A stretch of 7,496 bases of DNA, taken from positions 1-7,496 of IMG/VR virus record IMGVR_UViG_2695420687_000013. One strand, written 5' to 3'. The position numbers were made by a program. Below, piece by piece: positions 3,001 to 6,000 of this stretch. Source of the stretch: a virus. Taxonomy: Duplodnaviria > Heunggongvirae > Uroviricota > Caudoviricetes. Numbering within the stretch: position 1 is the stretch's first letter; each line of letters opens with the position of its first letter.

Positions 3001-6000
3001 CAATCTCCCTGCTGCCGGCAGCCGGAGAGGCTGCTGCGCAGGGCTGGAGCATTAAGGATGGCGGAATTCAGTTGTCAGATGGTGTATTTAAGATCACCAA
3101 GCAGAGCAATAAAACCTGGTCCCTGACGCATCCGGTGGATGACGCAATTACCCTGCTGACACAGGGCGGCAGACTGACCTGTAAGTTCCGCCTGTCAGGC
3201 GCACTGACCAACAATCAGTTCGGGCTGGGGATTTATCTGTATACGGATGCTCCCGTTCCTGATGGTGTGGCGATGACAGGTACCGGTAATCCGTTCCTGA
3301 TGTCGTACTTCACTCAGACCACTGACGGCAGAGTGAATCTGATGCATCACAGGAAAGCCGGAAACACGAAGCTGGGGGAGTTCGGCGATTACGGTAACGA
3401 CTGGCAGACGCTGGAGCTGGTGTTCACCGCCGGCAGTGCCACGGTTACTCCGAAACTGAATGGAGTGGCTGGCCCGGCATTCCAGGTCATAAAAGACAGT
3501 CTGACACTGGGGCTGAATGCACTGACGCTGACGGATGTTACAAAAAATGCAGCGTATGGCGTTGAGATAGAAAGTCTGGTGCTGGAGATAAATGCACCCG
3601 CAGCATAATAAAAAAAGCCAGCGCCCACTCTGAAGGACGCTGGCTAAAACGGGTAGATGTACTTCACATGATACTTATATCTGGCAGTACATTTTCTGAC
3701 AGATAGTGACGGATGTTGTCAAGATATTGTGTCATTTATAACCTGAATCAGGGGAGGCCGGAATGTTATCTGGCATTTTTAGCAGAGCCTGAATGCCATA
3801 ATCACGGCTCCCGGCGTTGGCCGTCAGTGGGTGACACTGGCGGCTTTTTTGTTTTTCTTTACTTTCATTTTCTGTCGGCGGTGACGGAGACATACATCAG
3901 ATGGAAAAAATCACAACAGGTGTGTCATACACCACGTCAGCGGTGGGGACGGGATACTGGTTACTGCAGCTGCTGGACAAAGTCTCTCCGTCCCAGTGGG
4001 TGGCGATAGGTGTGCTGGGGAGTCTGCTGTTTGGCCTGCTGACGTATCTGACTAACCTTTATTTCAAGATTAAAGAAGATAAGCGTAAGGCGGCGCGGGG
4101 AGAGTAAAGCGATGAAGAAAAAATACGAACTGGTTGTTAAAGGGATAAATAATTACCCGGATAAGATTACTGTTACTGTGGCACTGGAAATTGGTGGGTA
4201 TCCGTCACTGTTGTTGCCAAATGTGGCGATTAGTCTTGACCGTACTGAAGGTGCCACGCTGGAGTTTTACGAAGCGGAGGCGAAAAAGCAGGCGAAGCAG
4301 TTTTTCATGGATGTTGCTGCCGGGTTATGTGAAGGGGATGGTCCGTTGCCGGAAAAGCGCCCCGTCATTTTAGAGGCGCAGGATGTGTTGATAACCTACA
4401 GAGGAAAACTACCGGGAATAATTACTGGTTCTCTGAAGACTCCACCGCTGGCCTGAAGACTTAATATATCCAGGGATTTGAAATCGATAAACCCTGATAA
4501 ATATCCATGAACGCAAAAATCAGATACGGCCTGTCGGCTGCCGTTCTGGCGCTGATTGGTGCAGGGGCGTCTGCGCCTGAAATCCTCGACCAGTTTCTTG
4601 ACGAAAAAGAAGGTAACCACACCACGGCATACCGTGATGGTGCGGGTATCTGGACCATCTGCCGCGGTGCCATCCTGGTGGATGGTAAACCTGTCGTTCC
4701 GGGCATGAAGTTGTCGAAGGAAAAATGCGACCGGGTTAACGCCATTGAGCGTGATAAGGCGCTGGCATGGGTGGCGAAAAACATCAAAGTGCCACTGACT
4801 GACCCCCAGAAAGCGGGTATTGCGTCATTCTGTCCTTACAACATTGGCCCAGGTAAGTGTTTCCCGTCGACGTTTTATAAACGAATTAATGCAGGAGATC
4901 GAAAAGGTGCCTGCGAAGCGATTCGCTGGTGGATTAAGGACGGTGGCAGAGACTGCCGTATTCGCTCAAATAACTGTTATGGTCAGGTATCCCGTCGTGA
5001 CCAGGAGAGCGCTCTGGCGTGCTGGGGAATCGACAGATAAGCAGAATATTTTGCTGAAAAATGACGTTGGCCAGCGCGGGCGGATAACACGAAATCCTGC
5101 GAACTGGCAAAATGTAAGTGAATAAAGTTAGGCAGATTATTTCACGCAGAGGCACCGTAATGGTGCCTTTGTCATTTCTGCGCTTCGCACAAGCGTAAAT
5201 AAACCAAAGAACCTTTCAGGATGAGCCCTGGTGGATAACCGGCAGTGGTCTGGTTAACCCTCTTTGGGCTGGTTATTCCTGTGCGCAGGGTTCATCACTA
5301 AAAGGAATCAACCATGAAAGAGATGATTTCTGTCGATCATGAAATATCCATGAGTAGTCTGGATTTTCTGAATAACATTATTAATCCAGCCCGGGCAGAA
5401 GCCGGAGAAGTCCCTCATGAACCGCGTAAGTTTCTTGCAAAAATTGAGGATGAGCTAGAGCTTGATGGAACCGGAAAAAAATTCCGGTTAAACAATAACC
5501 AAACAAGAACGGCATACTATGATCTGGATTTTGACCAGATGATGCTCGTTGGCATGAGGGAGTCAAAGGCCGTTCGTCGTTCTGTGCTGGCAAGACTCAA
5601 AGCGATGCATGGTATTCAGATCCCCCGGACTTTACCTGAGGCGTTGCGATTTGCGGCAAAACTGGCTGAACAGAAAGCAGTGCTGGAAAATCAACTGGCA
5701 ATAGCAGCGCCGAAGGCTGAATTTGTTGATAACTATGTTGAAGCATCTGGTCTGATGGGATTCCGGGAAGTTGCTAAGTTACTCGGTATCAAAGAAACCG
5801 ATTTCCGGCTGTTTTTGTTGGAGAACGGAATAATGTATCGCCTCGCTGGAAAAATGACGCCTTACTCGCATCACCTGGATGCGGGGCGGTTTAGCGTGAA
5901 AACGGGCGAGGCGGGCAATGGTCATGCTTTTACGCAGGTTAAATTCACCCCAAAAGGTGTTCAGTGGATTGCTGGTCTGCTTGCTGCATGGAGAGCTACC

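Follow-up and report, generated by a model that had tools for sequence, protein, structure and literature searches.

A YdfR-family (DUF1327) gene between holin and endolysin in a lambdoid prophage segment: an accessory late gene with a candidate host-factor-binding N-domain

Introduction

What is the role of a small soluble protein whose gene lies between the holin and the endolysin of a lambdoid prophage, and does it belong to the lysis machinery at all? This question is raised by the virus record IMGVR_UViG_2695420687_000013 (Caudoviricetes), of which positions 1 to 7,496 were analyzed here (7,496 nucleotides, nt; hereafter the window). An earlier note, made from the sequence alone, had described a soluble 114-amino-acid (aa) protein at 4112-4456, wedged between holin and endolysin in an otherwise functional lysis cassette. 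The note knew of no function for it, and proposed that it was either a lysis regulator or an accessory gene, moron-like or defence-related. The protein belongs to the YdfR family (DUF1327). Both the family and the position of its gene are already known, and what we add is context rather than discovery. The explanation that we favor, while holding it at somewhat less than an even chance, is that this is a late accessory gene whose N-terminal domain (N-domain) is a host-factor-binding module, with the catalytic half of RNase E and/or RNA as its target.

Results

Identity and position of the gene

The open reading frame (ORF) at 4112..4456 (+ strand) has an ATG start and a TGA stop and encodes 114 aa. 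Its assignment draws on the ORF listing, Pfam, PHROG, homology, and the ratio of nonsynonymous to synonymous substitution rates (dN/dS). A hidden Markov model (HMM) search for DUF1327 had been proposed as a check, and it was clearly positive: the protein matches Pfam PF07041 (DUF1327) with 154.1 bits (cut-off 25, E = 1.2e-45) over profile positions 1-92 of 93. The Pfam scan of the protein returned DUF1327 alone, NCBIfam gave zero matches, and the PHROG match was phrog_406 (no known function, E = 4e-64). The protein also carries the N-domain signature of the family (YEL.VKG ... V.VTV ... DR.EG..LEFYEAEA ... IA..L) together with its beta3-alpha fold, and its gene lies directly 3' of a P21-type holin gene, the position occupied in Escherichia lambdoid prophages. 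The grand average of hydropathy (GRAVY) of the protein is -0.03, with no hydrophobic export segment seen, and neither a transmembrane segment nor a signal peptide was evident from GRAVY and the AlphaFold2 (AF2) model. The assignment to YdfR/DUF1327 is essentially certain, and the product is taken to be soluble and cytoplasmic.

The expected conservation in related prophages was borne out. The ORF between the holin gene S and the endolysin gene R in H-19B, BP-4795, Stx2a_WGPS2 and dozens of Stx1a/Stx2c converting phages is 98% identical over all 114 residues. H-19B, BP-4795 and Stx2a_WGPS2 also have their neighboring genes in common with the window (nanS-p, S, R, ant, Rz/Rz1); the window copy differs from theirs at 2 residues, and the upstream Q-stx region is missing from the window. 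The prophage of the window is accordingly of the Shiga-toxin type. A 100% identical protein is encoded on one IMG/VR contig (L008), and "YdfR family protein" is the RefSeq label of the same gene in E. coli chromosomes that match window positions 1778-7445 at 98%.

The junction with the holin gene is as the earlier note described it. The holin stop codon TAA (4105-4107) is followed by AGCG (4108-4111) and then by the ATG of the YdfR-family gene. A Shine-Dalgarno (SD) sequence, GGGGAGAG, lies inside the holin 3' end (4097..4104, + strand), with its GGAG ending 9 nt 5' of the ATG; the motif is shared by phage Min27. Judged from this arrangement, the gene appears to be translationally coupled to the holin. 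To place this in context, we surveyed the slot in 93 Escherichia-type loci (the window, 4 phage records, 80 IMG/VR loci and 8 genome loci), a sample whose IMG/VR part is skewed to close relatives of the query. Of the 92 loci with the holin on the fetched DNA, 91 had a distance of exactly 4 nt between holin stop and DUF1327 start. The DUF1327 proteins were 103 to 329 aa long, and the lysozyme start lay at a distance of -4 to 452 nt, which was 50 nt in 57 loci, the window included. The commonest sampled allele encodes 114 aa and is partner-less (61 of the 93 loci).

A conserved N-domain with exchangeable tails

The only part common to all family members is residues 1 to ~73, the N-domain or module A (aa 1-73; 4112..4330, + strand), which was delimited with the AF2 model, the stand-alone homologs and published data on a homolog (PMC13232886). 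AF2 modeling of residues 1-76 gave a mean predicted local distance difference test score (pLDDT) of 89.6 and a predicted template modeling score of 0.77. With a diverse alignment, the elements of the model were beta1 (5-14), beta2 (18-27), a loop (28-36), beta3 (37-43) and a helix (50-74). Module A is also found on its own, as proteins of 72-76 aa, for example in phage Evi and in P0174-P0205. The pair Y53-E54 is invariant even in the most distant members (alignments A1, A2 and A6), and Y5 is invariant in A1 and conserved at >=90% in A2 and A6. By contrast with these positions, the loop 28-36 and its flanks are hypervariable across alleles (ALEIGGYPSLLLPNV vs ALRDKKRFDGEIFDL vs KPEGDGQASLLLPDV). 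Comparison of KKKY-type with TQNY-type alleles over the first 76 codons gave a dN/dS of 0.23-0.27 at saturating dS (1.5-1.9); the ORF is therefore a genuine gene and not a chance reading frame.

The remainder of the protein consists of a linker and the module B tail (aa 74-114, ...PEKRPVILEAQDVLITYRGKLPGIITGSLKTPPLA; 4331..4453, + strand), as delimited by pLDDT, alignments and dS. The tail is basic (pI 9.5) and predicted to be disordered (pLDDT <50). Its near-invariance was at first sight suggestive of strong constraint, an interpretation that we rejected: dS is only 0.14-0.23, with a dN/dS of 0.5-0.8, which indicates recent sharing. Other alleles have a different tail in this place (mEp460, ...ETRPCSEARYTIKINSSDNSITGC; Qin, ...EKLSEKVESYLQHQYSFKIENPANKHERPHHKYL), or extend it with coiled-coil-like and further modules to a length of 162-329 aa, and Pfam returned no match for any tail extension. 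The family is thus modular, with an N-domain and exchangeable tails, and its alleles are mosaic.

Individual members illustrate this range. Alleles of 268-329 aa (L076-L086, L024) end in a module of ~150 aa (…EWECNRPSFVVSGDGGKITISENGK…GLTYLKVRI) with no Pfam match, and in L101 a Qin-type N-domain is fused to a different C-terminal module of 100 aa. Internal tandem duplications occur in P0001 (196 aa) and P0002 (169 aa), an in-frame stop at codon 90 in L068, and frameshifted tails in L102 and P0043; from such damaged and rearranged members we conclude that some copies belong to decaying prophages.

Structure prediction and fold comparison, the other computational check that had been proposed, gave a mixed result, in that the N-domain folds confidently and no convincing relative was found for it. 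Profiles A1 and A6, searched against PDB sequences, produced no match below E = 0.07. Module A resembles a double-stranded-RNA-binding domain (dsRBD) minus helix alpha1, and carries an AKKQAKQ stretch on its helix. The dsRBD was nevertheless rejected as a relative: its topology is alpha1-beta1-beta2-beta3-alpha2 whereas the model is beta-beta-beta-alpha, with the N-terminal helix absent, and the hhalign profile comparison gave a probability of <1%. We treat the resemblance seen in the model as that of a generic fold.

RNase E and RNA binding by the Qin homolog

The candidate function comes from YdfR of the E. coli K-12 Qin prophage (P76160). This protein shares with that of the window the PF07041 match, the N-domain with beta3 and the long helix, the slot between a pinholin (essQ type) and a signal-anchor-release (SAR) lysozyme (rrrQ type), and the 4-nt holin junction. 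The two differ in that identity is ~46% and limited to residues 1-74, the tails being unrelated: the Qin tail overlaps the R start, whereas that of the window (PEKRP...TPPLA) is followed by a 50-nt gap. The 103-aa Qin-type gene was found in the same slot at four surveyed loci (L004, L098-L100), where it begins 4 nt behind the holin and its end overlaps the start of the lysozyme gene, and the parallel with Qin ydfR that the earlier note had drawn is thus confirmed.

A two-hybrid screen with RNase G by Gopel et al. (RNA Biol 2026, PMC13232886) yielded residues 1-72 of Qin YdfR, a fragment whose signal was stronger with RNase E 1-597 than with RNase G. This reported RNase E-binding fragment corresponds exactly to module A. 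In the same study, Strep-YdfR co-purified FLAG-Rne 1-598 from lysates, and its eluate contained DNase-resistant nucleic acid at ~330 ng/ul, as compared with <=11 ng/ul in controls (~30-fold). Over-expression of ydfR has also been reported to raise the minimum inhibitory concentration of streptomycin three-fold (PMC12924614). The statement that no function is known therefore needs qualification: Qin YdfR is reported to bind the N-terminal half of RNase E and to co-purify with RNA (PMC13232886).

Several points weigh against extending this result to the protein of the window. The RNase E and RNA binding data belong to Qin YdfR alone (PMC13232886), and the differences between the two N-domains, which are 46% identical, are concentrated at surface positions. 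The co-purification was carried out from lysates without nuclease and a contaminant was not excluded by its authors (PMC13232886); that of RNase E may, moreover, have been bridged by RNA. Over-expression of ydfR altered few transcripts and left growth unaffected, and Qin ydfR is essentially untranscribed under standard conditions (PMC13232886). As for the domain itself, a pI of 5.05 makes the N-domain acidic, an uncommon property among RNA binders, and the profile comparison does not support a dsRBD. Finally, the 4-nt coupling to the holin would also fit a lysis-linked role.

Distribution and optional presence

The family is small and essentially restricted to Escherichia and Shigella. A word-indexed search found 280 relatives, every named one from Escherichia or Shigella, and of 1.84 billion cluster representatives only 93 reached E<=1e-3 in an exhaustive HMM search. 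Across 185,579 species-representative genomes, confirmed occurrences of the canonical motifs were limited to E. coli, E. ruysiae, E. albertii and Shigella flexneri, apart from two matching metagenome-assembled genomes, labelled Veillonella and Bacillota, that are probably mis-binned. A first scan of genome contigs with the divergent alignment A5 gave no matches. Within E. coli the gene is common, with a blastn match in 3159 of 5426 complete genomes (58%) and up to 8 copies in each.

The presence of the gene is optional. A tblastn search of phage records detected the holin in 427, and DUF1327 in 101 of those (~24%), the non-carriers including the 434 and 933W/Min27 types. Phages of these types lyse normally with pinholin, SAR endolysin and spanins alone. 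A core lysis component or antiholin-type regulator would be expected wherever the holin/endolysin pair occurs and with its homologs confined to lysis cassettes, and neither is the case here. Of the features of a moron, presence/absence polymorphism at a fixed site and deviant base composition are both seen: the GC content at third codon positions (GC3) is 0.49 for the YdfR-family gene, 0.62 for the holin gene, 0.55 for R, and 0.44 for an Ant-like insert in the same cassette. A promoter and terminator of its own are lacking. From the distribution we infer that this is an accessory late gene and not part of the holin-endolysin-spanin machinery. Thus, of the two options offered before, that of an accessory or moron-like gene gains from the optional presence, the low GC3, the hypervariable 3' side with its mosaic tails, and the homologs in tail modules described below. 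That of a lysis regulator is not supported by the distribution, since identical cassettes (21/434/933W type) work without the gene and the domain also occurs outside lysis cassettes.

Stand-alone N-domain genes and their convergent partners

Distant stand-alone N-domain genes are 25-40% identical and always in late-gene orientation. In L087 such a gene follows a Lambda_tail_I gene, in L092-L094 it separates a gpI-like gene from gpJ, and in L088 and L089 it immediately precedes gpL. In L006 its neighbors are the tape-measure C-terminus on one side and a gpM-like gene on the other, and in L090 it lies upstream of the unrelated holins Phage_holin_8 and holin_3_7. Because these homologs sit in tail modules and near unrelated holins, DUF1327 is not tied to lysis.

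A convergent ORF of 78-100 aa, with a product that is probably helical, comes after many of the stand-alone genes. At least four families of such partners were distinguished: phrog_25324 (59-75% identical; phage Evi at the S/R junction, L006 at H/M, and L090/L091), phrog_10490 (I/J junctions of L005 and L087), phrog_18136 (in L071 and L042, between a long-form DUF1327 gene and R), and one that has no PHROG. The convergent ORFs lie on the - strand at L003 3244..3540, L006 693..992, L090 768..1070, L005 335..616, L087 1879..2160, L092 1374..1610 and L071 3464..3727. They had no match in Pfam or PADLOC, and no convergent partner ORF is present in the window.

These associations raise an alternative that we consider unlikely, although it survives better than the others: the gene could be a conflict-related moron, one half of a mobile two-gene module for superinfection exclusion, defence or anti-defence, of which the window holds a copy without its partner. 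N-domain genes do travel with convergent ORFs in three insertion contexts. The phrog_25324 partner recurs at S/R, at tape measure/gpM and upstream of other holins, with a second partner family at I/J, and the hypervariable beta2-beta3 loop, the mosaic tails, the presence/absence polymorphism and the low GC3 are as expected of such a module; a scar at 4433-4461 (see below) further suggests that a partner region was deleted. However, at E<=0.1 no PADLOC-DB 2.0 model matched the protein, any of its long forms or the partner ORFs, and the defence-related role suggested earlier is left without positive evidence. No promoter or terminator belonging to the gene was found in the window, its late-operon orientation implies that it is not made in the lysogen, and the partner-less 114-aa allele is both the commonest and intact, which implies that the N-domain gene has value alone. 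The two ideas can also be combined, with the N-domain gene and its convergent helical ORF forming an unrecognized mobile module that hops among S/R, H/M, M/L and I/J and targets RNase E/RNA in conflict, the window copy being reduced and partner-less; we think this improbable.

Origin of the 114-aa allele

Comparison with L071, L042, L075 and L069 revealed a putative deletion scar in the window at 4433..4461 (+ strand). It consists of CTGAAGACT (4433-4441), CCACCG (4442-4447), CTGGC, and a second CTGAAGACT (4453-4461), after which the sequence continues with TAA (to 4464). Long alleles have one copy of CTGAAGA where module B ends and another ~54 nt 5' of the lysozyme start, this leader copy having diverged in L075 and L096. 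CCACCG or a variant (GCCGCCG, CCACTG) adjoins each CTGAAGA copy, the leader-side one being at -65 of the R start; none of the long alleles sampled had exact CCACCG at both sites. The 114-aa allele looks like the expected product of a deletion joining two CCACCG-like copies, and the 110-aa allele (L069) like that of a deletion between two CTGAAGACT copies. Judging by these repeats, the short forms may represent two independent deletions, each with loss of the extra modules and of the convergent ORF but with modules A and B left in frame.

The holin junction and the endolysin leader

The holin gene upstream (3901..4107, + strand) encodes a class II pinholin S of the P21/H-19B type, of 68 aa (Pfam PF04971, E = 1.2e-32; phrog_9876/phrog_20 holin). 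In most relatives an alternative start lies upstream as ATG at -9, within ATG-TAC-CAG-ATG (MYQM) or ATG-AAA-TCx-ATG (MKSM). In the window this codon is ATA (3892-3894), the motif being ATA-CAT-CAG/CGG-ATG here and in 12 other loci, so that only the shorter holin can start from an ATG. A tie between the presence of DUF1327 and the loss of the antiholin start was considered and rejected, as most carriers keep the dual start.

Its place behind the holin makes the protein a candidate for a trans-acting lysis-timing factor. As a partner of the pinholin or of the SAR endolysin, kept at a fixed ratio by the coupling, it would delay or sharpen triggering. In its logic such a factor would be comparable to T4 RIII, a small soluble cytoplasmic antiholin. 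Like RIII, the YdfR-family protein is small, soluble and found in a lysis context, and could in principle bind the charged cytoplasmic C-tail of the pinholin. The near-constant 4-nt junction and the shared SD embedded in the holin gene agree with this, as does the Keio ydfR mutant, which was envelope-leaky in a screen with chlorophenol red-beta-D-galactopyranoside (CPRG; PMC3879167 supplement). The leakiness may, however, reflect read-through into the downstream lysozyme gene rrrQ or a polar effect of the kan cassette on it. The protein has no sequence similarity to RIII, and Pfam, PHROG and NCBIfam gave none to known antiholins. DUF1327 is optional in otherwise identical cassettes, being absent from about three quarters of phage records with the holin, among them the lysis-proficient 434 and Min27/933W; N-domain homologs occur in tail modules with no holin nearby; and the dual-start motif of the holin is kept in most carriers. 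We regard a role in lysis timing as improbable.

Downstream, the SAR-type endolysin R (4507..5040, + strand; 177 aa; PF00959, phrog_7) belongs to the T4-lysozyme family, has a Gly/Ala-rich N-terminal SAR segment, and is 96% identical to the Stx phage lysozyme. In Min27 (933W type), which lacks DUF1327, R begins 4 nt after S behind the same SD (...GGGGAGAGTAA|GCTG|ATG), and in phage 434 the start of the lysozyme gene and the stop of the holin gene overlap. Since R takes the 4-nt slot in cassettes without DUF1327, DUF1327 occupies the coupled start that is otherwise that of R. In the window, cassette comparison defines a conserved endolysin leader of 50 nt that ends in CCTGATAAATATCC (4457..4506, + strand). 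This 14-nt sequence upstream of R is conserved in the DUF1327-bearing cassettes examined, with no recognizable SD. The first codons of R also differ, reading MNAKIRY in these cassettes and MSRKLRY where R directly follows S. At Qin-type loci the two genes overlap, the YdfR stop and the R start sharing ATGA.

The gene could also act in cis, by displacing the endolysin to a weak SD-less leader (…CCTGATAAATATCC|ATG) and so lowering or delaying R synthesis, with the protein itself mattering little. Beside the altered position and first codons of R, the ATGA overlap at Qin-type loci, which implies coupling by re-initiation, is compatible with this. We nevertheless judge a purely cis effect very unlikely, because the N-domain is under purifying selection at the protein level and folds confidently, stand-alone N-domain genes lie far from any endolysin, and the R leader has no special predicted structure (its RNA fold was unremarkable, z = -0.08). 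No Rfam match was found in the window, and on the + strand of 3901-5040 there were neither promoter-like sites nor a convincing terminator, with counts not above shuffled expectation.

Flanking genes and state of the prophage segment

The other lysis genes follow on the + strand. Rz encodes the i-spanin (6247..6705; PF03245, phrog_13; the frame is open from 6139, with the first in-frame ATG at 6247), and Rz1, an o-spanin lipoprotein, is embedded in it (6458..6643; PF06085, phrog_3198). The description of the cassette as otherwise functional holds insofar as the pinholin, SAR lysozyme and Rz/Rz1 genes are intact; Q, pR' and stx were absent from the phage segment of the window.

Between R and Rz lies a gene for an Ant/KilAC-domain protein of 231 aa (5314..6009, + strand; Pfam PF03374, phrog_63, GC3 0.44). 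This is a second low-GC3 accessory insertion in the cassette, as in Min27 and 933W-type phages. In P0037, a deletion has fused residues 1-93 of DUF1327 to the C-terminus of an Ant-like protein and removed R. On the 3' side of Rz/Rz1, at 7023-7364, is an ORF of 113 aa whose product combines a lipoprotein-type signal (…LVMGC) with a TonB C-terminal domain (PF03544, E = 6e-15); the ORF lies within the phage-derived segment that matches E. coli prophages to 7445. Between nanS-p and the holin gene there are two strong terminator-like hairpins with 11-bp stems and T runs, at 3616-3645 (- strand) and 3819-3845 (+ strand). The latter is ~55 nt 5' of the holin start, and late transcription of the lysis genes thus presumably needs antitermination.

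The left part of the window (1-1860) contains a setC-like fragment (147..833) and a yicL-like gene that starts at 1108 and is cut at ~1757. This left 1.76 kb is only ~83% identical to E. coli, and by this measure the host is probably not E. coli. Scattered ambiguous bases (N) occupy 1758-1777, and phage-like DNA (98% to E. coli prophages) begins at 1778, just 5' of nanS-p. The join at ~1778 marks either the insertion of a prophage remnant into yicL or a join made during assembly. As the phage DNA abuts a truncated yicL-like gene without Q, pR' or stx, expression of the window's YdfR-family copy is uncertain.

That the window copy is a silent, functionless passenger in a decaying prophage remnant, as the truncated yicL-like gene, the ambiguous bases at the join, the missing Q, pR' and stx, the near-absent transcription of Qin ydfR (PMC13232886), and pseudogenized or fused copies elsewhere (L068, P0037, P0043) might suggest, has little probability in our view, given that the ORF, the SD and all neighboring lysis genes are intact, that the protein is 98-100% identical to copies in inducible Stx phages, and that the right-hand end of the prophage is beyond the window.

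Discussion

The favored explanation, a late accessory gene with a host-factor-binding N-domain, can be put as a sequence of steps. Escherichia lambdoid prophages carry the gene as an optional accessory, shuffled by horizontal transfer. As the sequence shows, it has captured the holin-coupled start that the endolysin uses in cassettes lacking it and, because of this capture, is produced late, alongside the lysis proteins. Its working part would be the 73-aa beta-beta-beta-helix N-domain, a small binding module with a beta2-beta3 loop that varies by allele, and the tail, predicted to be disordered and exchangeable, would have been trimmed by deletion in the window allele. By analogy with the Qin homolog, the N-domain may bind the catalytic N-terminal half of host RNase E and/or RNA, and such binding would modulate late RNA processing or stability rather than lysis timing.

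Proteins that bind the catalytic half of RNase E or the degradosome include the host proteins RapZ and RraA/RraB, and the phage proteins Srd of T4, Dip of phiKZ and gp0.7 of T7. If the Qin result transfers, the YdfR-family protein would resemble them in being small, RNase E-contacting and possibly RNA-carrying, and would be phage-encoded like Srd, Dip and gp0.7; its gene differs from theirs in standing in the late operon and not among early genes. Pfam, NCBIfam and PDB searches gave no sequence relationship to RraA, RraB, RapZ, Dip or Srd.

The context analysis favors a host-factor-binding accessory protein over a lysis component, and marks the 73-residue N-domain as the unit to study. The gene rides with Shiga-toxin phages as part of the operon governing the release of the toxin, and even a modest effect on late mRNA stability or lysis timing would bear on Stx output and phage yield.

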